The notes under the pieces were generated by a model. That model saw nothing but the letters and a program-made list of their open reading frames with translations, did no database searches and was not told the origin of the DNA. Below are positions 6,561-33,140 of a DNA stretch of 64,000 nt, piece after piece. The DNA comes from Lytechinus pictus (Eukaryota): assembly GCF_037042905.1 (NCBI RefSeq), contig NC_087250.1:23934001-23998000 (forward strand), given 5' to 3'. Position numbers and translations under genes: made by a program. Within the stretch, counting starts at the first letter, position 1. Every line of letters begins with the position of its first letter.

Positions 6561-7976
6561 GGCCACCGGAAACATTACGACTGTTCGCAATCCGATTTTG
6601 GAACAAATCGCATTTTGCTCATTTTCTGAAAATGTGAATGGAACATATCATTTTATTTGAGGTTAAAATTAATTGATAGAATACTGATATAACTATTTTT
6701 GTCTCACCTGCATAGCAGAGTGAGACTATAGGCGCCGCTTTTCCGACGGCGGCGGCGACGGCGACGGCGACGGCGGCGGCGGCGACGGCGACGGCGGCGG
6801 CGACGGCGGCGGCGGCGTCAACACCAAATCTTAACCTGAGGTTAAGTTTTTGAAATGACAGCATAACTTAGAAAGTATATGGACCTAGTTCATGAAACTT
6901 GGCCATAAGGTTAATCAAGTATTACTGAACATCCTGCCTGAGTTTCATGTCACATGATCAAGGTCAAAGGTCATTTAGGGTCAATGAACTTAGACCATGT
7001 TGGGGGAATCAACATCAAAATCTTAACCTAAGGTTAAGTTTTTGAAATGTCATCATAACTTAGAAAATATATGGACCTAGTTCATGAAACTTATACATAA
7101 GGTTAATCAAGTATCACTGAACATCCTGCATGAGTTTCACGTCACATGACCAAGGTCAAAGGTCATTTAGGGTCAATGAACTTTGGCCGAATTGGGGTAT
7201 TTGTTGAATTACCATCATAACTTTGAAAGTTTATGGATCTGATTCATGAAACTTGGACATAATAGTAATCAAGTATTACTGAACATCCTGTGCAAGTTTC
7301 AGGTCACATGATCAAGGTCAAAGGTCATTTAGGGTCAATGAACTTTGGTCAAATTGGGGTATTTGTTGAATTACAGCCATAAATTTGAAAGTGTGTTGGT
7401 CTAGTTCATAAAACTTGGACATAATAGTAATCAAGTATCACTGAACATCCTGTGCGAGTTTCAGGTCACATGATCAAGGTCAAAGGTCATGTAAGGTCAA
7501 AGAACTTTGGCCACGTTGGGGGTATTTGTTGAATTGCCATCATATCTCTATAAGTGTATTGGTCTAGTTCATAAAACGTGGAAATAAGAGTAACCAAGTA
7601 TCACTGAACATCTTGTGCGAGTTATAGTAGTTTTCAAAATCAGCACTGCTGCTATATTGAATCGCGTGATGCAGGTGAGACGGCCAGAGGCATTCCACTT
7701 GTTAAAGATTGCAAGCCTTTATTTTGGAGTAAAGGCCAAATTAGTTTCAAATCATAGCCAAATGTACGACTGCTATGACGTCATTGCGACTAGATATTAA
7801 ATTTGCTTTTATTCTAAGAAGGATGATAGCATAGTCACAGATTTGAATATAGGTATTTGTACGATGATTTAGAACATTACACAGAATGTTATTCCAAGTC
7901 TCAATATTAGCATCAAATTCTACTACGTTTTATTCTGAAATCGGATCGCAGACCAATTGTAAGGTGTGCAGTCGCC
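6561..7976 (-). mobile_element. Harbinger-like MITE family B interrupted by family C element
   Basis: Reverse complement of the intact copy 40735-41148. Confidence 0.8.
6697..7703 (+). mobile_element. Non-autonomous Helentron-type (HINE/DINE-1-like) element, family C
   Basis: subTIRs GTCTCACCTGCAT (6701) / ATGCAGGTGAGAC (7669); 5' hairpin, GGC microsatellite, 162-192-bp tandem repeats, short 3' stem-loop, T-rich insertion site, no TSD. Confidence 0.8.
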
Positions 7977-10941: not shown

Positions 10942-12194
10942 CAGAGCTGCCAAATAGTACGATTTTGTCGTATTCCGTACGATTTTTCACTTAAAATACG
11001 ACACTAGGATTTTTACAAATAAAATACGATTTTTTAAAAATATAGCTATGGTAAGGCTCGACATAACAGAAATCCACCTCGGGCAATCATTATTGAAAAA
11101 TGTTAAGTTTTGGTGGCCCGAATCGGGCAACCAATAATTTTCAAAGTAGCGCAATTTTTCTCCCGATTTTGCACCATTTATCAACTTTATACAGTTCAAA
11201 TTGCAACCAATTCGTCATGCGCCCTTTTTGTTGATCTACACACAAATACACACACACATGACAGTACATAGGCTTACCGCTCTAGCATACAGTAGCTATT
11301 ATCCAGCCGGCCGGCTGGTGTGCGTGAGCTTTGCATGAAACCACTGCAGCTACATGTAGCTATCTGTGCGCTATCAGCCTATTCAGACTCGGGGAGCTAC
11401 GATACGAAATGTTGCTGCTAAGATATCTTCCACAGAACTTTGAAAATCTATTTGCAAGCATTAAAAACAGGAATTATGACCTCTCTTTTGACTCAAAAAG
11501 ACCGATTTCCAAATGTATTAATACACATAAAAACACATAGGTGAGTACATCACAGTCCCATATGTGCATTTGTATGTATGTTGATACTTGGTTTCTTTCG
11601 AAGCTGTGTCTTTTCTAGCAAAAAATAAGCAGACAGTTTTTTCCTTTTTGTCTCACCTGCATAGCAGAGTGAGACTATAGGCGCCGCTTTTCCGACGGCG
11701 GCGGCGGCGGCGGCGTCAACACCAAATCTTAACCTGAGGTTAAGTTTTTGAAATGACAGCATAACTTAGAAAGTATATGGACCTAGTTCATGAAACTTGG
11801 CCATAAGGTTAATCAAGTATTACTGAACATCCTGCCTGAGTTTCATGTCACATGACTAAGGTCAAAGGTCATTTAGGGTCAATGAACTTAGACCATGTTG
11901 GGGGAATCAACATCAAAATCTTAACCTAAGGTTAAGTTTTTGAAATGTCATCATAACTTAGAAAATATATGGACCTAGTTCATGAAACTTATACATAAGG
12001 TTAATCAAGTATCACTGAACATCCTGCATGAGTTTCACGTCACATGACCAAGGTCAAATTACAGTGAGCACAACAAAATAATGAGATGTATAGTAGGAAA
12101 GTACACGACGGGTATGAATAGGATTTTTTGTCTAAAAATAGGATTTTTTGGGTGAAATAATAGGATTTTTTGTCAAGTGTGGTTGGCAGCTCTG
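10942..12194. mobile_element. Non-autonomous TIR DNA transposon with 6-bp TSD
   Basis: TIR CAGAGCTGCCAA/TTGGCAGCTCTG; TSD TCAACA on both sides. Confidence 0.88.
11645..12058 (+). mobile_element. 3'-truncated family C copy inside the 6-bp-TSD element
   Basis: Near-identical to 6701-7160. Confidence 0.85.
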
Positions 12195-12792
12195 TCAACA
12201 TCAAATCTTAACCTAAGGTAAAGTTTTTGAAATGACATCATAACTTAGAAAGTATATGGACCTAGTTCATGAAACTTAAACATAAGGTTAATCAAGTATT
12301 ACTGAACATCCTGCCGGAGTTTCAGGTCACATGACTAAGGTCAAAGGTCATTTAGGGTCAATGAACTTAGACCATGTTGGGAGAATTATTTTCAAAATCT
12401 TAACCGAAGGTTAAGTTTTTGAAATGACATCATAACTTAGAAAGTATATAGACCTAGTTCATGAAACTTGGGCATAAGGTTAATCAAGTATTAGTGAACA
12501 TCCTGCTCGAGTTTCAGGTCACATGACCAAGGTCAAAAGTCATTTAGGGTCAATGAACTTTGGTCAAGTTGGGGGTATTTGTTGAATTACTATCATAACT
12601 TTGAAAATTTATGGATCTAGTTCATGAAACTTGGACATACGGTTAATCAAGTATGAGTGAACATCCTTCCTGAGTTTCAGGTCACATGACCAAGGTCAAT
12701 TAGGGTCAATGAACTTTGGCCAAGTTGGGGGTATTTGTTGAATTACCTTCATAACTTTGAAAATTTATGGATCTAGTTCATGAAACTTGGAC

Positions 12793-13190
12793 GGTTCCAT
12801 GACAATTGCTCCGCCGACATCTGCTCCGCCGACAATTGCTACGCAAAATACGACAACTCCTCCGCCGACAATTGCTCCGGACAGCTGCTCCGCCGACAGT
12901 TGCTCCGTCGACACTTGCTCCGCCGATATTTGCTCCGTCGACACTTGCTCCGCCGATATTTGCTCCGTCGACATCTGCTCCGCCGATATTTGCTCCGCCG
13001 ACAGTTGCTCCGCCGATAATTGCTCCGCCGACATCTGCTCCGATTTTACGACAATTGCTCCGCGACAATTTTCCGCCGATATTTGCTCCGCCGATAATTG
13101 CTCCGCCGAAAATTGCTCCAATTATACGACATTTGCTTCACGACAATTGCTCCGCAGTCTATTGCTCCGCCGTCATGTGCTCCGATAATA
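12793..13190 (+). repeat. Left TIR, 15-bp tandem repeat domain
   Basis: (TGCTCCGCCGAyAnn)n. Confidence 0.95.
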
Positions 13191-13227
13191 CAATGGCATG
13201 AACATCTTACAAATTGTTTTGTTGTTG

Positions 13228-13287
13228 TTTTTAGGTGGTCTGTCAACGACAGATCACCTATTAGTTTTGTCAGAATTTTCTTTCTTC

Positions 13288-13335
<48 letters not shown>

Positions 13336-14942
13336 TATTTTTATTTCCGCCAATTTTTTGTTCCAAAGATAACTCCAGATTGGTTTTGTCAATTTCTTTC
13401 AATTTTAGCACAGTTAAAGGTCATTGTCATAAGACGTGACAATAACATTTTCAAGGTCATCAGGTCATGATGACGTCATCTAGACGCCATTTTGTAAAAT
13501 CACATTATCAATCATATCTCCATTATCAATTATCAAAAATTAACAATATTTACATCACATTAACTTCAGGTCAAGGGTCAACAGTTCATGTCATCAAAGG
13601 TCACCTGGTGGTCACGACGCGCACGTACGCGCTCGTCAAAATTTAAAATTGCTCAAAATCACTTTTTGACCAAAGTAGAGTACGTTTCAGGTCATTTTAA
13701 GCATTTCAAAAATTTGCGCACGCACATGTATGCGCGCGCGTTTCCGCGCGTAACGCCTTCACCGCAACACAGAAACGCCGTTTTTTTTTATATCATTGCA
13801 TTGATAATATAATTCTGAGCAATTTGATACCTTCATCAACCTTCTACGACCATTAACAACGAAATTAACACCCGTTAAAGTTTGCAGCACGTGTGCGCGC
13901 GAGCTCCTACTATAGGCCATATATGGGCAAAAACATGCCTATTAAAAATTCACTGTAGCTCTTTAAATAGTCCGTTGACCCCCAATTTTTTTTCATATAT
14001 CGATAGAGTATGAGTTGTAGATTTGATTTCATGTCACCATTGTCCCTTAATTTGATCATGACGTCATCATAATGGCGTCGGAAGTTAAAATATCCATTTT
14101 CCTTTTTATGACGTCATAATAATTATGCAAATTAGGCTTTAACTCCGTGAATATTGGTCAATTTTCGCCCAATTTTCGATATGTTGTAGTTTAGAATGTA
14201 CTTATTCTCCTCAATCGGCATGTAATTTCATTTTGAAAAACGCATCATGGCGTAAAATAGCGATCAAAAGAGGCATGTCATTTTTCCTCATTTTGCGTGT
14301 AATCTCTATGGGACATGACTTTTTCTCAAAACTAGATTCTACATTCCTCTATTTCGTGAGCTATATCTCCATCTTTTCTTGTCAGTTGTCTCTGAGCTTT
14401 TAAAATGTTGTAGCTGAGATTCTAAGCTTCCGGAAGTGTGCCCTCCATTTTTTGATCAGATGCCGGGATCATGCCCGTTTTTCGCTTGCAAAATTGGATT
14501 TGCAATTCTCAAATTTGCTTACGTGTAATCTCTATGGGGAATGTCGTGGCTCAATGGATAACGCACTTGACTTGCGTTCTCGGGGGCGCAGGTTCGAGTC
14601 CTGGGGGTAAACAAGATGATTTTTTTTTTCATTTTTTTTTCTTTTTTACCACCTCGTACATGATCCTTTATGATAATTAAAAGGTATGAAAGTTAAAATT
14701 TAGCAAGATTAAACAGATTATAATTACTATTTTCATATCACATGTATTGTCATATATCAAAGAGACCATTTTCACAGTGCTTTATCATCTCCCGTCTTTC
14801 ACAAGTATTCCATCCATAATGAACATTCCGTTGTCATCATGAAGATCATATTGATCTGCTGGAACATGGTAATGGTGATCATGATGGCGAGAATAAGGAC
14901 AGACCACCTAATTCGTCCGCATGACGAATTAAAATCTAGTGT
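13228..14942 (+). mobile_element. Second Helentron/Helitron2-type non-autonomous element (family D)
   Basis: subTIRs TAGGTGGTCTGTC (13232) / GACAGACCACCTA (14898); (ATT)n; 3' hairpin AATTCGTC-cgcat-GACGAATT; ends CTAGT. Confidence 0.8.
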
Positions 14943-15096
14943 TCTTATTATTTTTATCTATTTATTTCATTCTCCCCTATCATCACAGCTTTCTGCTTAA
15001 AAAAACCAAATTGTTCTCCCTGCCGCCGCCACTGTCTTGACAAATTGTAACGCAGAAGGGGAATGACACACTCCCCATTGGAATTGTGAATCTGGA

Positions 15097-16446
15097 TTTT
15101 TGTCTCGCCTGCATAGCAGAGCGAGACTATAGGCGCCGCTTTTCCGACGGCGACGGTGGCGGCGGCGTCAACATCAAATCTTAACCTAAGGTTAAGTTTT
15201 TGAAATGACATCATAACTTAGAAAGTATATGGACCTAGTTCATGAAACTTGGACATAAGGTCAATCAAGTATTACTGAACATCCTGCTTGAGGTTCAGGT
15301 CACATGACTAAGGTCAAAGGTCATTTAGGGTCAATGAACTTAGACCATGTTGGGAGAATTATTTTCAAAATCTTAACCGAAGGTTAAGTTTTTGAAATGA
15401 CATCATAACTTAGAAAGTATATGGACCTAGTTCATGAAACTTGGGCATAAGGTTAATCAAGTATTAGTGAACATTCTGCTCGAGTTTCAGGTCACATGAC
15501 CAAGGTCAAAGGTAATTTAGGGTCAATGAACTTTGGTCAAGTTGGGGGTATTTGTTGAATTACTATCATAACTTTGAAAATTTATGGATCTAGTTCATGA
15601 AACTTGGACATAAGGTTAATCAAGTATTAGTGAACATCCTTCCTGAGTTTCAGGTCACATGGCCAAGGTCAAAGGTCATTTAGGGTCAATGATCTTTGGC
15701 CAAGTTGGGGGTATTTGTTGAATTACCTTCATAACTTTGAAAATTTATGGATCTAGTTCATGAAACTTGGACATTAGGTTAATCAAGTACCACTGAATAT
15801 CCTGTGCGAGTTTCAGGTCACATGACCATGGTCAGTGGTCATTTAAGGTCAATGAACTTTGGCCGTGTTGGGGGTCTTTGTTAAATTACCATCCTAACTC
15901 TGAAGGTTTATGGATCTAGTTCATAAAACTTGGACATAAGAGTAATCGAGTATCACTGAACATCCTGTACGAGTTTCAGGTCACATGACCATGGTCAAAG
16001 GTCATTTAAGGTCAATGAACTTTGGCCGTGTTGGGGGTATTTGTTGAATTACCATCCTAACTCTGAAGTTTATGGATCTATTTCATAAAACTTGGGATAT
16101 AAGAGTAATCAAGTATCACTAAACATCCCCTGTGAGTTTCAGATCACAAAACCAAGGTCAAAGGTCAGTTAAGGTCAATAAACTTAGGCCATGTTGGGGT
16201 AATTGTTGAATTGCCATCATAACTTTGAAAGTTTATGGATAGAGTGAATGAAATGTGGACATGGGTGTATTTGACAAGTCTTAAGTCACCATTCAAATGT
16301 CATCTTTGGTCAATGAACGTGGTATTATGTCATTATATGAATGGTGTGTTTGTGAATGATTATTTTATAGTAGTTTTCAAAGTTAGCACTGCTGCTATAT
16401 TAAATTGCGTAATGCAGGCGAGACTGCCAGAGGCGTTCCACTTGTT
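15097..16446 (+). mobile_element. Intact family C copy inside the foldback element
   Basis: Both subTIRs and about 6 tandem units. Confidence 0.88.
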
Positions 16447-16531
16447 GTTCATATATTATTATCATTGGTTTCAATCCGGTCTTGAGCGGGGAGAGAATGG
16501 GGGGGGGGGGTGCTGGACACAATATCTCTTC

Positions 16532-18468
16532 CATAGGCGGATCCAGGGGAGGGGCCAAGGGCCCCCCCCCACTGGCTGAACAAACAAAAAAAGAAAAAAA
16601 GGAAAGAAAGAAAAAAGAATGGAAAGAGAAGAGTAAAAAGAAGAGGAGGAAGACGAGTAAATAAAATAAGATGAGGGAAAGACTTGGAAAATAAAAAGAA
16701 TCTTTCATGTCACTGTATAAAATTTTCCCTCGCGCTTCGCGCTCGCATTGCCTGTTAGGTGATTTTTCATATCTTGTTCAATAATTATGGAGTTTGAATA
16801 TCAAGTTTGGAAGTCAATATACAAACATATTTCACCTCGGGAATCAAACTTTCATTGTTTTGTGTGATTTACAAATTGATTTTAAAAAAGTGCTCTGTAA
16901 AAATGTCAGTTTTATTGTCTGAATTTTAACATTTTCTACTCGCGCTGCGCACTCGCAAATGTTGATATATCAGGTACCTATTATTTTCGTGTATTCCGTA
17001 AAGTTTCCAAAATATCCCTTTTCAGGTCTGATTGTCAAAACGTATCAGCTAGCGCTGCGCTCGCATTTGAATGGAGAGTTATGTATTTCTCAATATTGAA
17101 TATACAAATAAACTACTTAAAATCCCCATTTAATGACAGTTTATCAAAAAATTTGGCTCGCGATTTGCGCTCGCATTCATGGTTAAAAATATATTAACTG
17201 ATGCATCCTATTTATGACTACGAAAGTAATTGAAATGTCCAGTTTTCAGACCATTATATCATCAGATTTCGTGCCGTCATTAGGCATTAATGAGTAAGAT
17301 ATTAATTTAGAAATTAAATTGTCCCTTTTGTTTTGTCTCGTGCTTAGCAAGAGGAATAGGAAAATAGTCATCATTTTCATATGATGACATGTCCTAAGGA
17401 TGTCCCGGTCCTATATATGTCAAAACTCAAAGTAATAATAGAACATATCAGCTCTTTATTAAGTGCAATCCATATCCACCTCACAAATTCACAAAGTGCT
17501 TGAAATATAGAGCAGAAATTGACTCTTTTTTACGTCGGAAAATCAAATAGTTTATTCTATTTAAAACATTATCCAGTTTCAGATCACAATATCAAAAATG
17601 TTCTGCTCGCGCTTTCTGCTCGCATTATCAAGTTAGGAAGATCCCATATTACTCATTCTTTTCATGGTTTACAAAACATGAATAGAGTGTCCCGTTTTAG
17701 GTCTAAATCTCGTTTAAATTGGTTAGTTATATAGCTATCCTGTTCACGATTACAAAAATTGATTGAAATTTTCCATTCTTTATGTAGAAATTTCAAAATG
17801 TTTCAGCTCGCGCTTCGCGCTCGCATTATTTGATTGTTGAAATATGTAGCGTCTTCATGGCTAAGTGCAAGCAGTCCTTAACAGGTTATCTTTTCGATCA
17901 CTTTAAAATGTATGCATTAAAAAAATTTCTGCTTGCGCTTTGCGCTCGCATTATTAATGTAAGGAAGATCCCCAATTACTCATCCTTTTCATGATTCACA
18001 AAACATGAATAGAGTGTCTCGTTCAGTAGGTCTAAGTCTCGAAATTTTCCGCTCGTGCTTTGCACTCGCTTTATATGATTTTTAAAGTATTTAACGTCTT
18101 CATGGCTATCTGCAAGCAATCTTTAACAAGTTCCTTTTCCATCAGTTCATTTCTGCTCGCGCTTCTCGTTCGTAGTAATTATTTAATTGCATACACATCT
18201 TTCTCAGGATAACAAACATTGACCAAAATGTTCCAATTTAAGAAAAAAAACATAACATTTCCTTTAAAAATTTAGCTCGCGCTTCGCGCTCGCATTATAT
18301 AAATAAGGATTATGATATTATATATTTATGTTGATTTATAAGAATAAAACTAAGTGACTTTAGGACTACCCCTTCAAAGAAACCAAAATCATCATCGAGC
18401 GGCCGATCGGGGAAAATATGGCTATAAACCCCCCCCCCTCCTATTGGCGAAGGCTAGATCAGCCCCTG
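16532..18468. mobile_element. Non-autonomous TIR element with CGCGCTTCGCGCTCGC repeats
   Basis: Termini CATAGGCGGATCCAG / CTAGATCAGCCCCTG; homologous to 26750-28550. Confidence 0.7.
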
Positions 18469-20779
18469 CCCTTCTGCTTTCCAGCAACTTATACACCATA
18501 CACTCGCCCCCCCCCTCTCTCTCTCCCTCTTTCTCGTTTTGTTCTTTCACACTATTAATTTTCATTGGTTACCGCTTGATTTATTGTATATTTATCAGCA
18601 TTACAATTGTTAATATTTTTATCAATATTTTTTAATACGTCTTGGGCCTTATCTACCCTTGCACCTTTTTTATTTAAATTTGTTTTAAACGAAAGCATGA
18701 TCATCACTGGCGTACAGATAGGGGAGGGGCGTGCTAGGGGTCACGGATCCCCCCCCCATTCTCCCTACCAATGAAAAAAAAAGAATAAAGGAAAGGAAAC
18801 TAAATGTCATCCTTGTCTGGCCCCCTCCATTTTTTTTTGTTGGCTCATTACGCTACTGGTGAGTTACTATAAGACGAGACTTCGGTTGTATTTTTTTCTA
18901 TTCTGTGCAATAGCAACAATATAAATATATTTTAATAAATGAATATATGTATGTATCTCTCTCATAACGTATAAACAAATAATGTTGTTTCTAAAAGACA
19001 ATAATACACATATATATACCTGTAATAATATAGTTACATATTCATGAAACCCAATAACGCATCGCACTGAATTTATAATGCGAGCACGAAGCACGAGATG
19101 TTATTAACCTGGAAAGGGGACATTTATACGCATTTTTTTTATTGTAAACATAAAGCATACCTATTGAATTTCACCTGGATCAAATATCTCCACTTCCGAG
19201 CATATTTCGCCAGAGCGATTTTGACGCTAAGAATTTTTTTTGTCCCGTCATAATAATTACATGAACACGCATATTTTTTTTTTCATTTTAATCACCAGGC
19301 ACGAAATAAAACTTAAAGAGGGTGGATAGTTTTGGTAATTCCTCAAAATCGGCATGTCACCATTCTAATTAATTTGTATATTATATGAATGTGTATGTCC
19401 TAAAACAGTCATGATGTGGATGATATGAAATGAAAAGGTGTTTTTCATGATAAATTATGCTCTTACATGTGTGGATTTTACCTTGCCGGGATACCCAGCT
19501 TTTTGAAACGTAGCTGCATGCAGACACTCAAAGTGCGCACCACCGCCTCTGCCGTGCGTGTGCTACGCGAGAACGATAATGTAGTCCTCGCTACACAATT
19601 GCGTTGTCAATCAGTTTTACCATAGAGCTATTACAGCTCTATGGTTTTACGAAGCTCATAGTCGTAGATACATTGCCGTTTCCAGACTTTCCTTGCATGA
19701 TTGCATCACATTACAACGAACGGCAGAGCAGACTTTAGATCTAAACAGCCTTGATCGATATTAGGAGTACGTACCTCATTCCTACCTTCCTTGAAGTTTG
19801 AACTTGCCCTTGGCTGGGGGCCGCTTGCATATAACAAACCTCGACCGTCCCATCTTCCCCATTACAAAAATGCAACCACGATATTAGCTGTTGCAAATAA
19901 GTATCTGCTCTCTGATTGCTAATATAACACTGGAACAATTTATAAATCAGAATGAATATAACGTACAGCACAGAATTAGAATTGGAAAAACTTATTTTTT
20001 TGGTTCTTCTCCGACTTCCCGCGTATTAGCCTCAGCTCATGTTGTTTCAGATTGACAAAAAGTTTTATTTTACGATTCTAATGATTCAAAAGAAAAGAAA
20101 GGAAAATGAAACCAACAGAAAGAACCCTTACATTCAAAGAAAATTCCAAGATTGTGCATCCTGTTTATGTTTTGGAAATGCATTGATTTAATTCTCACTA
20201 AAATGATATATAAACAGTCTTTGGGTTAATTGTGTCTGAATTCGTAGACTAGTACAGTGTGCACGTTGGATGTATGTTCTGTGTATGCAGTAGGACTGGC
20301 CGGGAATTTCATTCACTTGTGCGTGGGTGTACGGTATGAGTGTGTGTTTTTTTGTTGAATAGTGCGTGTGGAGACGTTACGTAATAAGGTCAACAGATAC
20401 ATTGCATGCAATGATCTTGTATACCGGGCCTCCTAAAGGTCATGAAGAGTTCAGTTCACTGGTCATGTACATGGAGAGATCCTGCGTGTCCCGAGATAAT
20501 TTGATTCAATCGAAACCATGGGCCTAGTATACAGCTCAGCATGCCAAGTTTCAGAAAACTGGCTATCCTATGGAATAAGTAATTTATTGGATAAAGTTCT
20601 GTAAATAATGTTATTCAGTTTGATCGTATATCTTTCCATAATATGGCCATTTCACATGGTAATAACCACTATCTCACTAACTAAATAGGCCTACCAAAAG
20701 AACAATAAAAATAATAATGTGGGTCGGGTGTAACGTCGATATAGGGCCTCGATATCATTTTATATATTTCCCCATAATT

Positions 20780-22542
20780 TTATTTTTTTCCTGAATATGT
20801 GGAATAACCGCTGAGGATTATATCTATGGTTCAGTCAAGTTGGTCCTTATTTTCAAATCTCTAATTGAAATATAATTCAAACAAGCCAGGGGGGCGGTGG
20901 GGGCGGTCGCCCCCCCCCAAAAAAAAAAAAAAAAAAACGTCCCCAAAAAGAAAAAAAGAGAAAAAAGAGAGGAGAAAAGGAAAAGGGAAGGGAGGAAAAG
21001 GGAAGGGAAGAAAGGTAGCTTTGAGGTTTTTTTTTCTTTTTATTCTTTTTTTTTTCTCAAAAGAGAAACTCCTTCACTCTTGCTCTAGATTTATATATGA
21101 ATTTTGCTTCCGCGCTGCGCGCGGTTAAATGACAATATTGAAGATCTCCATTGTTCCCCCCACCCTTTCTCTAACCCTGTTTTTCCACCTCAGCTATATA
21201 TGTGTTTCTTGCCGGGTAAAGTTCAAATGTATACATTAGGGCATGGTTAGGCCGAAGTATATGAAGTTATCTTTTTTTTTAATTGATCGCGCAACTTCTG
21301 GTCGGGTCGGCTCCGGTTGGGTGAAATCTTTATATCAATTTCTGCCGTCACCTCCATAAAGTCAACTTCTCCCGCTTTTCAGCTCATTACTAAACAACCA
21401 TAATTTTTGGGGCAAACAGGTTCCTAATTTAAAAAGAGGAAGGTATAAAATTTGTATCTTATTAAATAAAAAAGTACAATATTTTTTATCAAATTCTATT
21501 AAACTTCATGTCATTTCCCTGCACATTCATCTCCTGTCCTGTTTTGCGCCCTCAGTTTGAAATTTTGAATGACACCAAAGTTTCTTTATAAATCAAAATG
21601 AAGCGCTTCAGGATAAGTCAAAGAAATTAGGTATCCTTTTTATATAATTTCAATAAATCACAGAAGTTTCAACTTTTTGCGCACTATTTTCCTTGTAATG
21701 AAGTTCAATAATCTTAGAAAATTAATTGAATTAGAGCCGATCGGGTATTGGAGATATCTGCATTTGATGAAACGTCTGCCCTTTGAAATTTCAGAGTTTC
21801 GTTGTTCTGCGCGGGGAGGAATATCTTCCTCCAGGCATATACACTTCTTCTCCTCTGTTTTGCGAGTTAAAGATATGCACTGTCGCTAAATTGTTTGTAA
21901 TCAAATCTGATCTTTCCAAGGGAAGTGTCCAATATGTGTTTGAGAATACCGTTTTCTCGGGACCCTTTTCATGGCAAAAAATTGATAAAACGCTTTAGTT
22001 TCCGCGCTTCGCGCGGGGTTATTATCATTTTAATTTCCTCCATTGTATTCCTTTTTTGTGCGTTCACAATCTTTTTTTAAAACAATGTTCAAAATCACAA
22101 TATAGTCAACTGAATTGGAGCTGATATATAGGTACTAAAGACAAGAGAGACGGCTCCTTTTCATTTTAATTTATGAAACACCAAAAGCTTCGCAAGGGAG
22201 GGGGAAACTCCCCCTCCCTGCACCCACCCCCTAGGGAGCGCGCTTTGCGCGCTCTGTAAGTGTTGGCACGCTTCGCGTGCATTTACCGCCCCCTCCAAAA
22301 TGAAATCCTGGCTACGCGGTTGGTAGTGATCGAGGGACATCATCAACTCTCATTTGCATAATAGTGAGTTGTGCATATAACTATTTTGTGAAAAATATAG
22401 GCTATGTGAAATTTGGAAATGCCATACTGATTTAATCATTTTTACATCCAATTTTGATGAATTTTTCAAAATTATGCTTGTTGGATTTTTTTTCTATTGA
22501 TTCAAATCAACATTTTTTTTTCTGGGGTGGACTTGACCTTTA
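20780..22542 (+). mobile_element. Partial Kolobok-like MITE split by a ~1.4-kb insertion (20887-22322)
   Basis: Both pieces match 5078-5668; ends GGGGTGGACTTGACCT-TTAA. Confidence 0.65.
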
Positions 22543-22547
22543 ATTAA

Positions 22548-24347
22548 TCATATTACCATGATCAATTTAATCAATGCAAGAATGATCTTAAAAAAACATG
22601 GAAATTGATCAATTCTACCATCAATAATGGACCAAAGTTTTCAAAGATAACTAAGCTTATGCATAATGATTCTATTATTGAAGATAAAGTTCAGATGGCA
22701 AATATTTTCAACAATTACTTTTCACAAGTTGGATTTAAGCTCTCTAGAAGTATACCAACAAACTCCCATTCATTTCATCAATATCTGGGGGATAGAAATC
22801 AAAGTTCTATGTTTTTCTCTCCTACGAACGCACAGGAGATAATTAAAATTATATCTAGCCTAAAATCAAATAAAAGTGCAGGATTTGATAACATTGATAA
22901 CAACCTTTTACTAAAAACTATGAATTATATTATTGACCCTCTTATTTATATATTCAATTTGTCATTATCATCGGGAAATATTCCAAAATCAATGAAAATT
23001 TCTAAGATAATACCAGTCTTCAAAAAAGGTGATAGTTCTTTAGCAAGTAATTACAGACCGATTTCATTGCTTACAAACTTATCTAAAATTCTTGAAAAAT
23101 TGGTTCACATACGAACCATATGTTTTTTTAAAAAGCACAACATCCTATCCGATACTCAATTTGGTTTCCGGGAAAAGAGTAGCACTTCCCACGCAATACT
23201 TTCTTTGGTTCAAACAGTTGCCAAAGCTTATGACAAGTCTTCGAATACGATTGGTTTGTTTTTAGATTTTTCAAAAGCATTCGATACAGTTGATCATAAC
23301 ATTCTCCTTTATAAACTTTCTCATTATGGAATAAGAGGGGAACCACTAAAGTGGTTCAAGAATTATCTAATCGGGCGTTCACAGTTCGTTTCACTTGATT
23401 GTAATATTTCTGAACGTAAACCTGTCCTTTGTGGAGTTCCACAGGGCAGCATTCTTGGCCCACTTTTGTTCATTACTTATATAAATGATATTGATATGTC
23501 ATCTAGATTGCTCCAATTTATACTTTTCGCTGATGACTCTAATATAATTCTGTCGCACCCCGACCCAGAGCAATTGACGCAAATATTCAATGACGAACTA
23601 AAAAATGTGTCTAATTGGATAACAGCTAACAAACTCTCTCTTAACCTAGAAAAAACTAGCTACATGCTATTTAGCAACAAGATTACGAGTGTACCAAAAG
23701 ATGTAATTTTAAATGATATTGTCATTCAAAGAGTGCGATCTACTAAATTTTTGGGACTGATCATTGACGACAAACTTTCTTGGAAAGCACATATTGATAA
23801 TATTTGTAAAATCATTGCACGCAACATCGGTGTCATTAGAAAATTAAGTTACTTCTTACCCCATTATATTTTGTTATCATTGTATTCAACGTTAATTTTA
23901 CCTTACTTGAATTACGGAGTTGTTGCGTGGGGTAATGCAGCGAATTATCAAATTAATAGACTTTTTATTTTACAAAAAAGAGTGATTCGTATTATTAGTC
24001 ATGCAGAATTCAGGGCACATACAAATATTCTGTTTTTGAGAAATAAAGTCTTGAAGATTAAAGATTTATATTCTTTTCAACTCGGACAGTTAATGTTCAA
24101 GTTTATCAATAAACAATTACCGTTACCTTTTAATAATATGTTTATAAAAAATGATACAATTCATAAACACTTCACTCGCCAGGCGAGTTCCTTTCATTTA
24201 CCTCTGAATAGAACATCGTTTGCACAGAAGACATTTGTTTTTACTGGTCCAAAATTATGGAATTCTTTTTCAAAGGATATTATACAATGTAATTCAATAC
24301 ACAATTTCAAAGGAAAACTTAAAAAATATCTTCTGAATTCATATTAG
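22548..24347 (+). CDS. Non-LTR retrotransposon reverse transcriptase ORF2, 5'-truncated (CR1/L2 group, Crack/Daphne-like)
   Basis: ~600 open codons: NYRPISLL, QFGFR, FLDFSKAFDTV, GVPQGSILGPLLF, LFADD, KFLG; no endonuclease domain. Confidence 0.95.
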   Translation, partial: SYYHDQFNQCKNDLKKTWKLINSTINNGPKFSKITKLMHNDSIIEDKVQMANIFNNYFSQVGFKLSRSIPTNSHSFHQYLGDRNQSSMFFSPTNAQEIIKIISSLKSNKSAGFDNIDNNLLLKTMNYIIDPLIYIFNLSLSSGNIPKSMKISKIIPVFKKGDSSLASNYRPISLLTNLSKILEKLVHIRTICFFKKHNILSDTQFGFREKSSTSHAILSLVQTVAKAYDKSSNTIGLFLDFSKAFDTVDHNILLYKLSHYGIRGEPLKWFKNYLIGRSQFVSLDCNISERKPVLCGVPQGSILGPLLFITYINDIDMSSRLLQFILFADDSNIILSHPDPEQLTQIFNDELKNVSNWITANKLSLNLEKTSYMLFSNKITSVPKDVILNDIVIQRVRSTKFLGLIIDDKLSWKAHIDNICKIIARNIGVIRKLSYFLPHYILLSLYSTLILPYLNYGVVAWGNAANYQINRLFILQKRVIRIISHAEFRAHTNILFLRNKVLKIKDLYSFQLGQLMFKFINKQLPLPFNNMFIKNDTIHKHFTRQASSFHLPLNRTSFAQKTFVFTGPKLWNSFSKDIIQCNSIHNFKGKLKKYLLNSY

Positions 24348-24780
24348 ATTATCGTTTTTTCCCAAAGTAATGTAATTCAGAACTTAATATGTAAATGTGT
24401 TTATTAATTTCTCTTTGTATATATGTTTAATCGTTTTATGATCTCTGTATACAGTGTATACTGAATCATTTATTTTTATTATTATTTAATTTTATTTTTA
24501 TTTTTTTTATTCATTATATATATATATATTGTTTATTTCTTTATTTTATCTTATTTTTAATTCATAAAATTTACTTATAAAAGGGGGCCTTCACCCTACA
24601 AGCTCTGCTTTTTAGTTGGTCTCCTTCCCTTTCGATTTCATGGTATTATTGTATTATAAAAAAATGATTTAAATGTTATATTTTGTAAATATGTATATTG
24701 AACTATCATTGTAAATGTAAAAAGATTGAAAGAGAAAATAAATGAATTGAATTGAAAAAAAAAAAAATTGAATTGAATTA
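22548..24780 (+). mobile_element. 5'-truncated LINE with 3'UTR and (ATTGA)n/poly-A tail
   Basis: RT ORF, AT-rich UTR, AATAAA followed by TGAATTGAATTG(A)nTTGAATTGAATT. Confidence 0.9.
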
Positions 24781-26141
24781 AACATTGAACTGTGGGAGAG
24801 ATGCAAAAAAAATGGCAGGGACAATGATTTACAAGCCAAGCGCTGATCGATTTTCAAGTCATTATCAGAAAAAGGAGGTGAAAGAACGGGAAGGGGAAAA
24901 AATGCAATGAAAGAAAGAAATTATATAGAGAAAGAAAGAACGTAGGGGAGGGGGGTTGGGTGGGGATCGAGCTGCATGGGAACGAGTCGTTGGGAATTTG
25001 TCTAGTCTGACAAACTTTATTATTGCAATTCTTTGTTTCTAACTTGACAACCAAACGATACACGTCCCTCATGAATAACCGGATATATATTGTCACTCGG
25101 ACTGTTATGAGTGAGAGAAAAGCAAAAAAACCCAAAACAAACATGTTGCGATATCGGCCTAAATTAATTGCATCATAATTCATAGTGCATTGAAGTAATA
25201 TTATTTCTTCACACACACTTTCTTGTGAAAATGCCTATTTGTTCAACTGCATGGCCTATCCCTTCCCCAATAGGCCTACCCCCCCCCCAACCTCACCAAT
25301 CGCATAGGGTGGACAAAATAATACTGCACGAGCAAGTATTTGGCCTTCGGCTGTATAAAACGTGTAATTTTTGTTTGTCAACGAAACAAAGTACGAATCT
25401 CTTGTAATGAAAAGATCTCTGACTTCATAATTTTATAAAGTCAAAACTTATTCCCAAAATATTTTATGAATGTGAGAAAGACCAGCGGTCGAGAATACAG
25501 CATATACGCCAGTTTTCCCAAATTTTTCTTTCCACATGTAAATTGGCGGATCAGGGCTGGGGGCGACCAAGGTATATTTTGAAAATTGCTCATAGACATA
25601 CATTTTTATTTATTTACTTTAATAATTGTATGCATTTATTCATTCATTCATGCATGGTCATTTATCATATATTCTGTTTCATTTCCCCAGTGTAAGAGAG
25701 TCTTGCACAATAGAGCTAAATGTACGAAAATTGCCATTATAAAATATGGGCCCGTCTGTTTTGCTGTTTCCACCAATTTTTATTTCAAAATCCAAAATGA
25801 TACATTTTCTTTTGTTCCACGTTCCAATAAATAAAAAATCTTACTTGACATCTAACACGAAACGAGTGACCATTTTTGAACTTTCTTCACAACGTAAAAT
25901 TTTATAAGAATCTTTTTACTATAATTGGCGACCTTGCCTGACACAGTCCAATTCGATATTGCCATAAACTATATAAATCGCTCTTGTACCATGATTGGTA
26001 TACCCTGGCCAAATGGCACTGGATGCATGATCAGTTTCAAGTTTCCAATTTGCACCTTTCTAATGAGTCTGAGCAGAAACACAAGTAAAGAACTGTATAT
26101 AGCTCCTTTATAGAGGCATATTTACAAATGATATGTTGGGT

Positions 26142-28553
26142 ACAGGGGCGGATCCAGCTTCGCTGATATGGGGGGGGGGGATTTTTCAGTCACATTTTCC
26201 ACAATCGGCCGCTCGAAGTTGATTTATGTATGTTTATTTGAAGGGGTAGTCCATTAGCTGTATTCCTATAAATCAACATAAATATTTAATAATCTCATAA
26301 GCCTTATATAAATAGTTCGAGCGCGAAGCGCGAGCTAATTTTGTATTTGAAATTTTAACATTCTGGGCAATGTTTGTGAGCCTGAACGAATCGTGTATAT
26401 ATGCAACTAAATAATTACTGCGAAGCGTGAACAGAAATTTTAAATATACGTTTTGATCTGATCGAAAAGGAACCATGCACCTGTCAAGGACGTCTTGCAG
26501 TTAGCCATGAATGCGTTGCATATATCAACAATCAAATAGAAGTACATTTTTACCTAAAGAAGGGAAATTCTAAGCTTTTTTGTAAACGTAAACAGGATAT
26601 GTATATCACTGAACTATTGATGCGAGGGCGAAGCGCAAGAGTAAAAAAAAGAGATTTAGACTAAAACGGGACACATCATTCATGTTTTGTAAATAATGAA
26701 AAGGATGAGTAATTTGGGATCTTTCTAGATTAATAACATGAATAATGCGAGCGCGGATCCAGGGCGAAGTTCCCGGGTCCCTCTAGGAGTGGGGAAAATA
26801 AAAAAAGGGAAAAGAGAGGAGAAAAAAAGGAGGAAAAGAGGAGGAAGACAAATGAAAAAAATAAGGTGAGAAGAAGACTTGGAAAATACAAAAAAAATAA
26901 GAATCTTTCATATCACTATATGAATTTTTCGCTCGCACTTGCATGTTTGATATCGAGATACAAATAATCCTCAATGGGCTGATATGGAGCTGAAAATATC
27001 ACGTTGCTTGATTTACAAATTGATTTTTTTTTAATGTGCAGCCGTAGTCCGTTTATGGTCTGATCGAGTATCAATGCAGCTCGCGCTACGCGCTCGCATT
27101 ATTTGTCAAGTACCCAATATCTAGTCTTCGTATTTACAATAAATTCTCAAAATATTCTTATTCAGGTCTGATTGTCAAAACATATCAGCTCTGATTGTCA
27201 AAACCTATCAGCTAGCGCTGCGCGCTCACATTTCGATTGGTTAGTTATTTATCTCTATAACAAACTATTTAAAATCCCTTTTCATGACAATTTATTTAAA
27301 AAAAATCGGTTCGTGATTTGCGCTCGCATTAATTGTTAAAGATATATCAACCAATGCCTTCTATTCATAAATAGAAAAATACTTAAAATATCCAGTTTTC
27401 AGAAATTGATATTAACAAATTTCTCGCTCTTATTGGGCTTATTAGAGTAATAAATAAGATAATAACAATAACATTTCATGAATTGCTAATAACTATATTG
27501 TCTTTTTTTATAATTGAAAGAATTTTCATCTCGCGCTTGGGGACACTTAATATAGGTAGATAATTTCTATTTTCATATGACAAAATGTCCTTAGAATGTT
27601 CCCGTCCTAGGTCAGAATAATTTCCGAAAAATATCCGCTCGAGCTTCGCGCTTGAATCATTTATTGAGTGCGATCCACATCCAGTCAGTTTCATTTTCAG
27701 TGTTTGAAATAGTTTTCAGATTAGAATTCTGCTCGCACTTCCCGCTCGCATTACGTAGGAAGATGCCTAATTACCCATCTTCACGCCTTACAAAACATGA
27801 ACTAGTGTCCCGTTTTTAGCTCTAAATCTTAATTTTCCCCATCGCGCTTATCGCTCGTATTGTCTAGTTATATACCTATTCAGTTCAGGATTAATGCTTA
27901 GAATGTCAATTTTCTTGTTGGAATGTCAAAAATGTTCAGCCCGCACTTCGCGCTCGCATTATTCCATTCTTGAAATAGGCCATCATAATTATATAGGCCT
28001 ATGTATCGTCTTCATGGCTACTACAATCAGAACAGGTCCCTTGTTTATCAGGCCAGAATATATATGAAAAAAAAATCTGCTCGTGCTTCGTATTTGCAGT
28101 ATAGTTATTAGTTAGATGTTTTATTTTCAGGACAAAATATGACATTTACGAAAAATTTTAACTCGCGCATCACTCGCACTATATTGAATAGTACGTATAG
28201 GATTATACATTTCAGGGGTCGCGGAAGCGAGGGGGGGCTCCAGCCCCTGCTTTTTTCCATAACCGTGTTCAAAAAAGTAAAAATGACCATTTGATTGTGA
28301 TTTTTTGCATGGTCACCCCCCCCCAAAAAAAAACAAAAACATTTGACTCAGCCCCCCCCCCCTCACTTTGAAAACCATTCTGCGGCCCCTGCATTTATGT
28401 TGTTTTATAAGAATAAAGCTGACTGTTAGGTCTACACCTTCAAAGAAAGAAACAAACAAAAATCAACTCAGAGCGGTCGATCGTGGAAAATAATGGGTGA
28501 AAAATTCCCCCCCCCCCATATTCGTGATATTGGCCGCGAAATTGATCTGCCTC
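26142..28553. mobile_element. Two abutting copies of the same GC-hairpin TIR family, with nested MITE 28213-28391
   Basis: CAGGGGCGGATCCAG start; GATCTGCCTCTG end; nested MITE CAGGGGTCGCGGAA...GCGGCCCCTG with CATTT duplication. Confidence 0.65.
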
Positions 28554-29582
28554 TGCTATCATGTTAGCTCGTTCCATTCTTATTTCCTGTTTCCCTTGCC
28601 TCATTTGTTCTTTCTTTTCCTTTACTTGTTATCCTCTTTTTTTTACCTTTCCCTTTCTTCTTTTCTCCCTTTTCCCACTTCCAAATTAATTTCCCTTCCC
28701 CAATGCATGCGCTGAAATATGACGTGAAAGACATGAACACATCGTACACGCAAAACTGTGTATGAACAGAATGCATAGAGTTGGATAAAGCGTGAGAGAA
28801 TGTCAGGCCGAAGCGCCGAGCTGAGCGAGCGTGACCAATGTCCATCGCATCGCATCGCATGCAGCATGCAGTATAATGTATCTCGCAGTTTCAAGAACCA
28901 TGAACCAATCTTGTCGCACGTGGAAATTTGTAGCCAAAATTTTGACAGACTCATCTCTAATACGTTTTCATGAACGTCAAAATAAACTACTGTAACATGT
29001 GAACTACAGGTTGGAGGGACAGCATAAGGGGTAAGTTAGTCCACATTTTTAAAAATAATTATCTAACCCATCTAACAAAAATTCAACGGTTTCCTGTGCT
29101 CCTCGCCGAACTCGCTGGGGGAGAAACTCGACGGAGGCCATGCTAAAACTAAGAACAATGATCGACGAGCGGGTACACGGAATTAGCAGACTACGCTCGC
29201 AGGGATATTTCGGTTTGCTAAAAGTGGAACGGCTAGTGATCAACTAACAGGGGGAAAAATCAGTCGTGGACGAAAGTGGGCGCTATATAAGTGCGCATAA
29301 ATTCAGCGAACTGTCTTTGAAATTCAGCCGAGGAGAATGATTTTATTTCTCGGAGTTTATTTAAAATTTAATATTTCCAAGAAGAAATTCTGTCAATTTC
29401 GCATTGAATCATCATCAGCAATCGTTATTCAATAGGAAAGATCCATTCAACTGGAATTTTTGTATCCTTTACCAACACTATCCACGAGCTTTAAACAAAT
29501 GCCCCCCAAGGAATAAGAATTAAGAATATCTATCCCTCCTTTGTGCTTATCCCTTTTTTCTATTTCTTTCTATGTTATGTAT

Positions 29583-29732
29583 CAGGGGCCGCGGAACCGG
29601 GGGCTGGGGGCTTCAGCCCCCCCCCCTCCCCCTTTTTTTTCCAAAACCGTGTACAAAAACGTAAAAATGACCATATGATTGTGATATTTAGCATGGTCAG
29701 CCCCCACTTTGAAAACCGTTCCGCGGCCCTTG
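29583..29732. mobile_element. MITE (same family as 28213-28391)
   Basis: TIR CAGGGGCCGCGGAAC / GTTCCGCGGCCCTTG. Confidence 0.7.
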
Positions 29733-29856
29733 TTTATGTCATGTAGTATATCAAATTTACTTTGCAATATATATATTATAATATACACATTGGTAAATTG
29801 ACGTCTTCATCCTGTGCTACAATTGTTATGCGCATGAAAGTACGAATTAATTTAAA

Positions 29857-30286
29857 TGTCGCAATATCGGAGCAATTTACGGCGGAGCAGATGTAGGCGG
29901 AGCAAACATTGACGGAGCAGATATCGGCGGAGCAATTGTCGCGATGCAATTTTCGGCGGAGCAGATGTCGGCGGAGCAATTATTGGCGGAGCAGATGTCG
30001 GCGGAGCAAATATCGGCGGAGCAATTGTCGTATAATCAGAGCAGATGTCGGCGGAGCAATTTTCGGCGGAGCAGATGTCGGCGGAGCAAATATCGGCGGA
30101 GCATATGTCGACGGAGCAAATATCGGCGGAGCAAGTGTCGACGGAGCAAATATCGGTGGAGCAAGTGTCGACGGAGCAACTGTCGGCGGAGCAACTGTCC
30201 GGAGCAATTGTCGGCGGAGCAGTTGTCGTATTTTGCGTAACAGTTGTCGGCGGAGCAGATGTCGGCGGAGCAATTGTCGGGTCACC
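29857..30286 (-). repeat. Right TIR, 15-bp tandem repeat domain
   Basis: Reverse complement of the left arm, with the same order of repeat variants. Confidence 0.95.
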
Positions 30287-30959
30287 ACTTGGACATTAGG
30301 TTAATCAAGTACCGCTGAATATCCTGTGCGAGTTTCAGGTCACATGACCATGGTCAATGGTCATTTAAGGTCAATGAACTTTGGCCGTGTTGGGGGTCTT
30401 TGTTAAATTACCATCCTAACTCTGAAGTTTATGGATCTATTTCATAAAAATTGGGATATAAGAGTAATCAAGTATCACTGAACATCCCCTGTGAGTTTCA
30501 GGTCACAAAACCAAGGTCAAAGGTCAGTTAAGGTCAATAAACTTAGGCCATGTTGGGGTAATTGTTGAATTGCCATCATAACTTTGAAAGTTTATGGATA
30601 GAGTGAATGAAATGTAGACATGGGTGTAGTTGACAAGTCTTAAGTCACCGTTCAAATGTCATCTATGGTCAATGAAAGTGTTATTATGTCATTATATGAA
30701 TGGTGTTTTTGTGAATGATTATCTTACAGTAGTTTTCAAAGTTAGCACTGCTGCTATATTAAATCGCGTAATGCAGGCGAGACTGCCAGAGGCGTTCCAC
30801 TTGTTACTAGTATGGTTCATTCGCTTTACAACAAATAGTAATAAAAAGTTCTTGGGATCCTTTTTTGTTAGTATCAATTATCAATATCAGAGGAATTTGG
30901 TTTGATTTATAATTTATTTTTATTTTTTATATACATTTTTTTGCATTGTTCATTTACAG

Positions 30960-32397: not shown

Positions 32398-33140
32398 GAG
32401 GATGATGATGGTGATGATAATGATGATGATGATGACGATGGTGTTGATGGTGTTGATGATGATGAAGGTGATGTGGATGATGGTGATGATGATGATGAGG
32501 ATGATGATGGTGATGAAGATGATGGTGATGATGGTGATGAGGATGGTGATGATGATGATGGTGATGAGGATGGTGATGATGATGATGGTGATGATGATGA
32601 TGGTGATGATGACGATGGTGATGAGGATGATGGTGATGATGATGATGATGATGAGGAGGAGGAGGAGGAGGATGACGACGACGATGATGATTATGATGAT
32701 GGTGATGTTGATAATGATAGTTACGGACGGTGGTGATAATGATATTGGTGGTGCTATTGATGGGTGTTTTGATGGTAGTGGGGATGATGATGCTGATGAT
32801 GATGATGATGATAATGATGAAGGTGATGATGATAATAAAGGTGATGATGATGACGGTTATGGTGATGATGATGATGATGATGATGATAATAGTAATGATG
32901 ATAATGATGATAATGAAGGTGATGTTGATGATGATGGTGATGATGATGATGGTGATGATGATGATGACAGTGATGATGATGATGAGGAAGGTGATGATGA
33001 TGAAGGTGGTGATGATGTTGATGATGATGATGGTGATGATGATGATGGGGATGATGGTGATGATGATGATGATGAAGGTGATGATGATGAAGGTGATGAT
33101 GATTAAGGTGATGATTGATTATGTTGATGGTAATGATGAC
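32398..33140 (+). repeat. (GAT/GGT)n microsatellite
   Basis: Direct reading. Confidence 0.95.

Follow-up and report, generated by a model that had tools for sequence, protein, structure and literature searches.

Introduction

Nested transposon clusters arise through stepwise insertions that keep intact signatures, with younger elements lying in older ones, and their outer element is enlarged without capture. The locus described here lies in a 64,000-nt stretch of Lytechinus pictus DNA (the window) and shows no essential difference from such clusters. The sole curiosity is that one repeat family, termed X, serves the outer element as target and also occurs as a guest within it. The locus represents an ordinary nest of transposons rather than one transposon with captured host DNA.

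Foldback elements of the FB type duplicate 9 bp of target sequence. TU elements are non-coding, with long terminal inverted repeats that include outer 15-bp tandem repeats, an 8-bp target site duplication (TSD) and heterogeneous, modular middles. They were reportedly described from Strongylocentrotus purpuratus by Liebermann et al. in 1983 (Nature 306:342, as cited in PMC4079207). The present family shares with them the 15-bp tandem outer arms, the heterogeneous modular middles, the absence of coding capacity and the 8-bp TSD, which here is 9 bp in 3 of 19 copies. This likeness is one of general structure, and the tips of the present family are fixed and unlike each other.

The Drosophila foldbacks FB and Tetris are described in PMC4079207 as mostly non-coding elements with long inverted arms of tandem repeats and variable middles. 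Inverted tandem-repeat arms, non-coding copies and variable middles also occur in the present family, whereas the repeat unit is 15 bp here and ~220 bp in Tetris according to the same source. The arms of the present family measure just ~400 bp around a middle of 3.5 kb, so its copies are not mostly hairpin. The other relevant groups are Helentron-associated elements (HINEs) and Merlin transposons. HINE hallmarks, as given in PMC4067079, are subterminal inverted repeats, a 3' palindrome, a T-rich or TT target and the lack of a duplication. Those of Merlin are a terminal 5'-GG, a TSD of 8 or 9 bp and terminal inverted repeats (TIR) of 24-462 bp, according to PMC8101967.

The outer element and its target site

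The outer element extends over 12793-30286, with 17,494 bp between the two TSD copies. Its parts and flanks are given below; L013 is a canonical 4314-bp copy of the family, and L046 and L047 are other copies of the nested element Y.

12194-12784, plus strand: left part of the interrupted target, a copy of family X with 192/163-bp internal tandem repeats; 96.4% identical to the intact X copy at 15167-15772
12785-12792, no strand: left TSD copy ACTTGGAC, matching the right copy
12793-13231, plus strand: backbone block a, with left tip GGTTCCATGAC and 15-bp-repeat arm (array 12801-13184); L013 1-450, 93.6%
13232-14939, plus strand: nested insertion 1, a 1.7-kb non-coding Helentron/HINE-like element with precise junctions, missing in four of four canonical copies
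14940-15103, plus strand: backbone block b; L013 450-613, 99.4%
15104-16441, plus strand: nested insertion 2, a full 1.34-kb copy of X (same family as the target) with precise junctions, absent from canonical copies
16442-19317, plus strand: backbone block c, non-coding interior; L013 607-3523, 95.9%
19318-22551, no strand: nested insertion 3, first part of Y, which is non-coding, 7.9 kb long and bounded by imperfect inverted ends of ~23 bp, with TTAA(A) as target; 98.9% to L046 and L047
22552-24772, plus strand: 2.2-kb LINE fragment within Y, recognized by Pfam RVT_1 and by its junctions, missing from L046 and L047
24773-29490, no strand: nested insertion 3, second part of Y; 99.2% to L046 and L047
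29491-30286, plus strand: backbone block d, with right arm (array 29868-30280) and right tip ...GTCGGGTCACC; L013 3519-4314, 97.5%
30287-30294, no strand: right TSD copy ACTTGGAC, matching the left copy
30295-30805, plus strand: right part of the interrupted X copy; 30287-30805 is 95.4% identical to 15928-16446, with the register of 15765 onward

Both arms (left 12793-13190, right 29868-30286) were found by Tandem Repeats Finder to have a period of 15; the array at 12801-13184 comprises 24.9 copies and that at 29868-30280 comprises 27.0. The top-scoring inverted pair (12801-13063 with 30016-30278) covers 263 nt at 96% complementarity, and the order of 15-mer variants is common to both arms across the outer ~270 nt. 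When the left arm was globally aligned to the reverse-complemented right arm, 368 of 444 columns matched. The inverted ~400-bp arms of 15-bp repeats in the same variant order, on which the original prediction was built, are thus real. The noted unlikeness of the extreme tips was also confirmed, with bases 4-8 alone differing between the left (GGTTCCATGAC) and the right (GGTGACCCGAC) tip. It is not an oddity of this copy, since the left tip and the right tip are each constant throughout the family.

The TSD ACTTGGAC is perfect over 8 bp, and both flanks of the element are a single repeat with a period of 163 bp that resumes in register, as had been noted. The unfilled site is visible in an intact paralogue at 15725-15812, which runs uninterrupted across the insertion site with a single ACTTGGAC and matches the left flank in 48 of 48 and the right flank in 39 of 40 positions. 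Derivation of the arms from two separate half elements was considered and rejected on account of the TSD and the in-register target.

Composition of the interior

The canonical copy L013 maps collinearly onto the element in four blocks, and the break points agree with those obtained with L014, L015 and L017 (four of four canonical copies). Over 436 nt the right arms of L013 and of this element are 98.6% identical. In each genome search the best 40 candidates were scored. The segment 18300-19317 of block c gave 40 other genomic matches at 87-98% among the matches scored; the nearest backbone relative is at 98% and most are at 87-97%. The 13.2 kb beyond the backbone consist of three precise insertions of high-copy elements.

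Insertion 1 has subterminal inverted repeats (TAGGTGGTCTG at 13232-13242 and its inverse CAGACCACCTA at 14900-14910), a palindrome at 14911-14929 that lies 10 bp from the 3' terminus, a final ...CTAG and an internal (TTA)n microsatellite at 13289-13345. Its target is a run of T without duplication. A first look gave 2664 candidates; the full-length copies are at 91-98%, and some of these lie in tandem. The subterminal inverted repeats, which lie near the 5' end and some tens of bp before the 3' end, the 3' palindrome ~10 bp before the terminus and the T-rich target without duplication agree with the HINE/DINE-1-like hallmarks in PMC4067079. The likeness of insertion 1, and probably of X, to such elements also covers tandem repeats or a microsatellite in the interior, high copy number and the occurrence of copies in tandem.

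The limits of the nested X copy are uncertain by 7 bp, with a T-rich 7-mer at both sides. As for insertion 1, the insertion site is T-rich and shows no duplication. X gave 6161 first-look candidates, and its full-length copies are 94-99% identical with unrelated flanks. X is probably a Helentron-associated (HINE-like) element; the assignment is tentative because its 3' palindrome is weak.

Insertion 3 interrupts the backbone with Y, which in turn harbors the LINE fragment. TTAA flanks occur in four of four Y copies. The first look at Y gave 266 candidates, and for each of its ends (19.3-19.9 and 28.9-29.5 kb) there are 39 further matches at 98-100% among the matches scored. For 29 of the 39 scored 5'-end matches a 3' end could be paired, and 20 of these 29 pairs are 7.8-8.0 kb apart. 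Copies of Y are 99-100% alike, in contrast to the backbone relatives with 98% at the nearest. The LINE fragment contains a reverse-transcriptase ORF at 22548-24344 (RVT_1, E=5.5e-37) and an A-rich tail at ~24719-24777, and its insertion site is intact in other Y copies. The part of Y at 26.1-28.5 kb is a diverged relative of the backbone interior (67-76%).

The family in the genome

Exact searches with 23-mers from the tips gave 180 matches for the left and 195 for the right tip genome-wide, with 0 for reversed controls. Among the first 100 left tips listed, 82 were paired with a right tip. The median size of these 82 copies is 4282 bp; 35 measure 3.9-4.35 kb and only six exceed 7 kb. The copy under study ranks second by size, which together with its 8-bp TSD supports the earlier description as an unusually large, non-autonomous TU-like member. 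TSDs in 19 other sequenced copies were perfect over 8 bp in 14, matched in 7 of 8 positions in one, were perfect over 9 bp in three and were absent in one, so that an 8- or 9-bp TSD is present in 18 of 19. GGT starts both tips in all inspected copies.

Copies fall into size classes of 4.3 kb and 5-6.7 kb, with one copy of 1.45 kb. Sequence shared between the 5-6.7-kb and 4.3-kb classes is confined to the arms, block b and a single ~700-bp module, which stands in opposite orientation. Oversize copies elsewhere contain retroelements: LINE reverse transcriptase/endonuclease sequences in L021, L025 and L027, and a Gypsy-type pol in an 18.5-kb copy. The family is a real, abundant, TU-like and non-coding DNA transposon with long inverted repeats and a usual length of ~4.3 kb. 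It offers a clean description of a TU-like group, in which the tips are asymmetric and constant, the duplications measure 8-9 bp and the copies form size classes.

Order of events

The outer element is a canonical ~4.3-kb transposon in a tandem-repeat target that very probably grew in place to 17.5 kb through three nested insertions. The ~4.3-kb element would have inserted into a copy of X, giving rise to the 8-bp duplication, and insertion 1, X and Y (with the LINE fragment inside) would have been added to it afterwards. The backbone/Y and backbone/insertion-1 junctions were found at this locus only, among the 40 candidates scored per search. The backbone/X junction is common to three copies of a second subfamily (86-94%, among the matches scored). 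In this subfamily L063, which has a perfect 8-bp TSD, and L064 are 91.8% identical over 2.3 kb through arm, backbone, X and backbone. The second subfamily carrying X is an older one. Because the backbone/X junction recurs in it, either the family can carry a nested element along or there is a hot spot for X at this position. A few copies show a possible origin of modular foldback families, which may carry along the elements nested within them.

Movement of the 17.5 kb as one unit was the central claim of the original prediction. Nothing shows that it took place, and for two of the three insertion junctions no second locus was seen among the matches scored. We regard it as unlikely that any of the nested elements, or even all of them, were already aboard in the cut-and-paste event that brought the arms to this site. 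Such a history is compatible with the perfect 8-bp duplication that brackets the full 17.5 kb and with the occurrence of the second-subfamily variant with X at at least two loci with identical internal junctions. Against it stand the two junctions without a second locus among the scored matches and the 18.5-kb copy, the only one that comes close in size, which differs in content and has a Gypsy-type element. Moreover, this Y insert and its relatives share ~99% identity, as against differences of 2-13% among backbone copies, so movement as a unit would need a very recent mobilization of the arms. Since cut-and-paste transposition leaves no donor copy, the absence of the nested elements at the last move is not provable from the data. 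An assembly artefact, in which wrongly joined repeats make two unrelated arms seem to bracket 17 kb, is highly improbable. The precise insertion signature at each of five elements (the 8-bp TSD, the TTAA of Y, the T-rich sites and the LINE site) and the collinear and complete backbone blocks form a pattern not expected from chimeric joins, and the window contains zero N. These observations outweigh the repetitive nature of the whole region and the failure of short-contig data to bridge a junction; short contigs from four runs on 12300-30800 comprised thousands of repeat-derived pieces and paralogue joints, and none listed spans an outer junction.

It is scarcely credible that the arms mobilized a piece of the host genome including unique sequence, in a Pack-MULE-like or composite manner. 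The large size and the interior that looks mixed by eye suggest this, and nothing else does. The stretches at 18.5-20.7, 24.8-26.1 and 28.6-29.5 kb that had been taken as unique are all multi-copy at 87-100%. The 18.3-19.3 kb segment is family backbone with the 40 other scored matches at 87-98% given above, and 24.8-29.5 kb aligns at 99.2% to two full copies elsewhere. These stretches belong to the backbone and to Y, which are repeated elsewhere in the genome. A captured and mobilized genomic segment is likewise contradicted by the composition of the element: of the 17,494 bp of 12793-30286, every base that is not backbone belongs to one of four separate mobile elements of high copy number, each with ends and an insertion signature of its own. 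Neither fragments of host genes nor single-copy DNA of the host, as in Pack-MULEs, were found between the arms; none of the ORFs inside the element has a host-gene Pfam domain, and the sole domain is the LINE reverse transcriptase. For the backbone/Y and backbone/insertion-1 junctions, the same cargo between the same ends was not seen at other loci among the matches scored. A giant cargo-capturing foldback lacks support, and the locus itself, a textbook transposon nest in non-coding DNA, is of little significance.

The mobilizing enzyme

As had been noted before, no transposase ORF is present inside the element; the only Pfam match among the 12 window ORFs that lie in it is the reverse transcriptase. 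The family would move by cut-and-paste using a transposase encoded elsewhere, and this enzyme is predicted to recognize the 15-bp units GCTCCGCCGACANNT that recur along both arms, together with the tips. Searches for an autonomous partner gave no transposase in the family. The longest non-arm ORF of the canonical copy is at most 126 aa. In 15 larger copies (ORFs of at least 110 aa) the 10 longest non-arm ORFs were compared with Pfam; six had retroelement or SCAN domains and four had no significant family. The 33 ten-kb stretches that extend inward from unpaired tips contributed 21 non-arm ORFs of at least 150 aa, in which a scan detected reverse transcriptase, domains of host genes or no domain.

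The ends of the family resemble those of Merlin in PMC8101967, with 5'-GG tips, 8-9-bp TSDs and ~400-bp arms that lie within the TIR range. Judged by these sequence features, the Merlin superfamily would fit best. The original prediction had suggested a search for an autonomous partner with a MULE- or Merlin-type transposase between the same 15-mer arms. The DDE_Tnp_IS1595 profile (PF12762) has 53 matches in the genome, and the 15-mer core or tips were found near these matches at 0 of 30 loci (±1.5 kb) and in 0 of 40 ten-kb stretches. The family differs from Merlin in that this transposase lies neither between nor near its arms in those 40 stretches. It is possible, though doubtful, that the family represents the classic TU elements of sea urchins locally and is at the same time a non-autonomous Merlin lineage, with the enzyme lost or behind different ends, and that its modular bodies arose from carried Helentron-like or other nested elements. 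Such carriage is suggested by the second subfamily with X at at least two loci. Ends that fit Merlin would make the question of the TU-type mobilizing enzyme testable.

Three near-identical Merlin copies match an interior module of the backbone at 70-78%. This module was rejected as a link to the family since it is also present in Y, and it is regarded as a separate old repeat.

Ends and target site of the element

The genome searched comprised 812 Mb in 368 contigs, with the window at C6:23934001-23998000. The 17.5-kb element (12793-30286) ends in two inverted arrays of 15-bp repeats:

12801-13184, left arm array, period 15, 24.9 copies
29868-30280, right arm array, period 15, 27.0 copies

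The best inverted pair between the arms spans 263 nt with 96% complementarity. The order of variant 15-mers matches across the outer ~270 nt, and the overall alignment gave 368 matches in 444 columns. The tip sequences are GGTTCCATGAC and, from the opposite strand, GGTGACCCGAC; ACTTGGAC is present outside both. Both flanks are parts of one repeat, X, which has tandem units of 192/163 bp in its interior. Within the element, an intact paralogue at 15725-15812 crosses the target site; it agrees with the left flank at 48/48 bases and with the right one at 39/40. Because this paralogue carries ACTTGGAC once and matches both flanks, the target duplication is real and the target in register. The original prediction was right about the element ends, which it had described as inverted 15-bp-repeat arms with unlike tips, flanked by the ACTTGGAC duplication and a host repeat in register.

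The 15-mer-armed family in the genome

A left arm query returned 550 first-look candidates genome-wide. There were 180 occurrences of the left tip (23 bases) and 195 of the right, and reversed controls gave 0. Length was surveyed from the first 100 listed left tips, on contigs C1-C8, and a right tip in proper orientation was found for 82 of them. The median size of these paired copies was 4282 bp; 35 measured 3.9-4.35 kb, 27 measured 5.0-6.7 kb and 6 exceeded 7 kb, the element described here (17,494 bp) being the second largest. The identical pair of unlike tips was present in all family copies inspected; the mismatch characterises the family and does not reflect damage. Target duplications in 19 other copies were perfect over 8 bp in 14 cases, matched at 7 of 8 positions in one and were perfect over 9 bp in three (L022, L028+L029 and L030). 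The remaining copy, L019, had unrelated flanks, which may reflect recombination between two copies. Among oversize members elsewhere, three hold LINE reverse transcriptase/endonuclease and an 18.5-kb copy holds a Gypsy-type pol; the bulk of the other oversize members is owed to retroelements.

Sea-urchin TU elements have outer inverted repeats of 15-bp units, an 8-bp duplication, modular heterogeneous middles and no coding capacity. The 15-mer-armed family matches every testable structural feature of this definition, and the earlier assignment to a TU-like family is reasonable.

Backbone and inserted elements

The canonical copy L013 (4314 bp) aligns to the element as four collinear blocks, and its break points were repeated with three further canonical copies. 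The three gaps in this mapping are insertions.

Backbone blocks and inserted elements
12793-13231, backbone block a, L013 1-450
13232-14939, insertion 1, starting with TAGGTGGTCTG inside a T run
14940-15103, backbone block b, L013 450-613, 99.4%
15104-16441 (limits uncertain by 7 bp), insertion 2, a full copy of X, the family also serving as target
16442-19317, backbone block c, L013 607-3523, 95.9%
19318-29490, insertion 3, element Y, interrupted by 22552-24772
22552-24772, LINE fragment in Y, whose 599-aa frame matches reverse transcriptase (RVT_1, E=5.5e-37) and which has an A-rich tail
29491-30286, backbone block d, L013 3519-4314, 97.5%

Insertion 1 contains (TTA)n; its far end carries CAGACCACCTA, the inverse of TAGGTGGTCTG, followed by a 19-base palindrome and ...CTAG, and no target duplication was found at its junctions. 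The first look yielded 2664 candidates for it; its full-length copies stand at 91-98%, and some of them are arranged in tandem. These features are hallmarks of Helentron-associated elements as given in PMC4067079. X, which gave 6161 candidates and whose full-length copies stand at 94-99%, is probably also Helentron-like; no duplication was evident in 7 copies inspected, and their flanks were unrelated.

Two full copies elsewhere share 98.9-99.2% identity with Y and differ from it only in lacking the extra 2.2-kb block at 22552-24772. The ends of Y are imperfect ~23-bp inverted repeats with TTAA on both sides in 4/4 copies. The 5' end had 39 scored matches at 98-100%, 29 of which pair with a 3' end, 20 of these pairs being spaced 7.8-8.0 kb. 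Y is a very young, apparently non-coding 7.9-kb family whose copies agree at 98-100% and whose 5' end drew 266 first-look candidates. A 67-76% diverged relative of the 15-mer-armed family's interior makes up the 26.1-28.5 kb part of Y, and pieces of Y (85%) lie inside L032 and L033, both from the 5-6.7-kb subfamily.

Backbone and inserted elements together cover all bases between the tips. Three interior stretches had been proposed as unique sequence captured as cargo. Each proved to be repeated in the genome: 18.3-19.3 kb belongs to the backbone and has 40 further scored genomic matches at 87-98%, 19.3-19.9 kb and 28.9-29.5 kb form the two ends of Y, and 24.8-29.5 kb is its second part. A Pfam scan of ORFs in these stretches found no host-gene domain. 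Cargo capture is thus unsupported, the interior consisting of backbone and repeated mobile elements, and the locus is a nested-transposon cluster of known kind.

Coding capacity and transposase

The canonical copy has no non-arm frame longer than 126 aa. No transposase domain was found in 10 non-arm ORFs scanned out of those listed in 15 larger copies, nor in 21 taken from 33 ten-kb stretches that lie inward of unpaired tips; these ORFs yielded reverse transcriptase/retroelement domains, host-gene domains or nothing. From this lack of transposase frames in the ORFs scanned, the family is non-autonomous as far as seen. Its structure suggests that a trans-acting transposase would move it, reading the tips and the reiterated 15-bp units.

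Merlin elements are described in PMC8101967 as having TIRs of 24-462 bp, 5'-GG at the termini and duplications of 8 or 9 bp, and the 15-mer-armed family fits all three. A direct test for a Merlin transposase linked to the arms failed. The genome holds 53 matches to DDE_Tnp_IS1595, and both the 15-mer core and either tip were absent from 30 such loci with 1.5-kb flanks and from 40 ten-kb stretches around such matches, so that the Merlin-type partner suggested by the original prediction was found at none of those examined. Three Merlin-type loci (L137, C1:35.22 Mb; L138, C2:58.56 Mb; L139, C3:77.39 Mb) are 97-99% identical and have a 338-aa DDE frame. On the left they start with GGAATGGAAAG and hold ~163-bp repeat arrays; ~121-bp repeats lie on the right of L137 and L138, the shorter L139 being without them. 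Each of the three also matches, at 70-78%, an interior module of the 15-mer-armed family.

History of the locus

Three inner junctions were searched with 117-126-base queries centred on them, 40 candidates being scored per search. Among these candidates the backbone-Y and backbone-insertion 1 junctions were spanned by this locus only. The backbone-X junction was spanned by three other loci at 86-94%, all members of the 5-6.7-kb subfamily. L063, a complete element among these three, is flanked by a perfect 8-bp duplication; over 2.3 kb covering arm, block b, X, the next module and both X junctions, its identity to another of them, L064, is 91.8%. X occupies one shared backbone site, GGATTTTTGT^TCATAT (window 15097-15103/16442-16448; L063 4823-5872; L064 4358-5401; L065 3940-4945), and in L063, L064 and L065 it is an older version (87-89%). 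Either an older insert was propagated with its element, or the site is a hot spot for X. Since the element described here has a backbone of the 4.3-kb class and a full-length X that is 97-99% like young copies, its X insertion is distinct from, and later than, the one in the subfamily.

Copies of Y diverge by ~1%, compared with 2-13% for backbone copies. The simplest history has four steps, in which the target copy of X would have been present first, a 4.3-kb element would have inserted into it with an 8-bp duplication, insertion 1, the second X and Y would have landed inside that element, and the LINE would finally have landed inside Y. That some guests were already carried when the element last moved is improbable, and it keeps a small chance because cut-and-paste leaves no donor copy.

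Neighborhood of the element

Two more copies or fragments of X, 89-93% identical to the one at 15.1-16.4 kb, lie upstream at 6795-7623 and 11645-12058, the latter directly preceding the target copy. An ORF of 182 aa at 57266-57811 (+) matches Pfam Ion_trans (E=3.4e-09); an ion-channel gene located 27 kb downstream of the element probably has an exon here. At 32401-33000 and beyond lies a long, strongly GC-skewed microsatellite of the (GAT)n type, with about 200 units.
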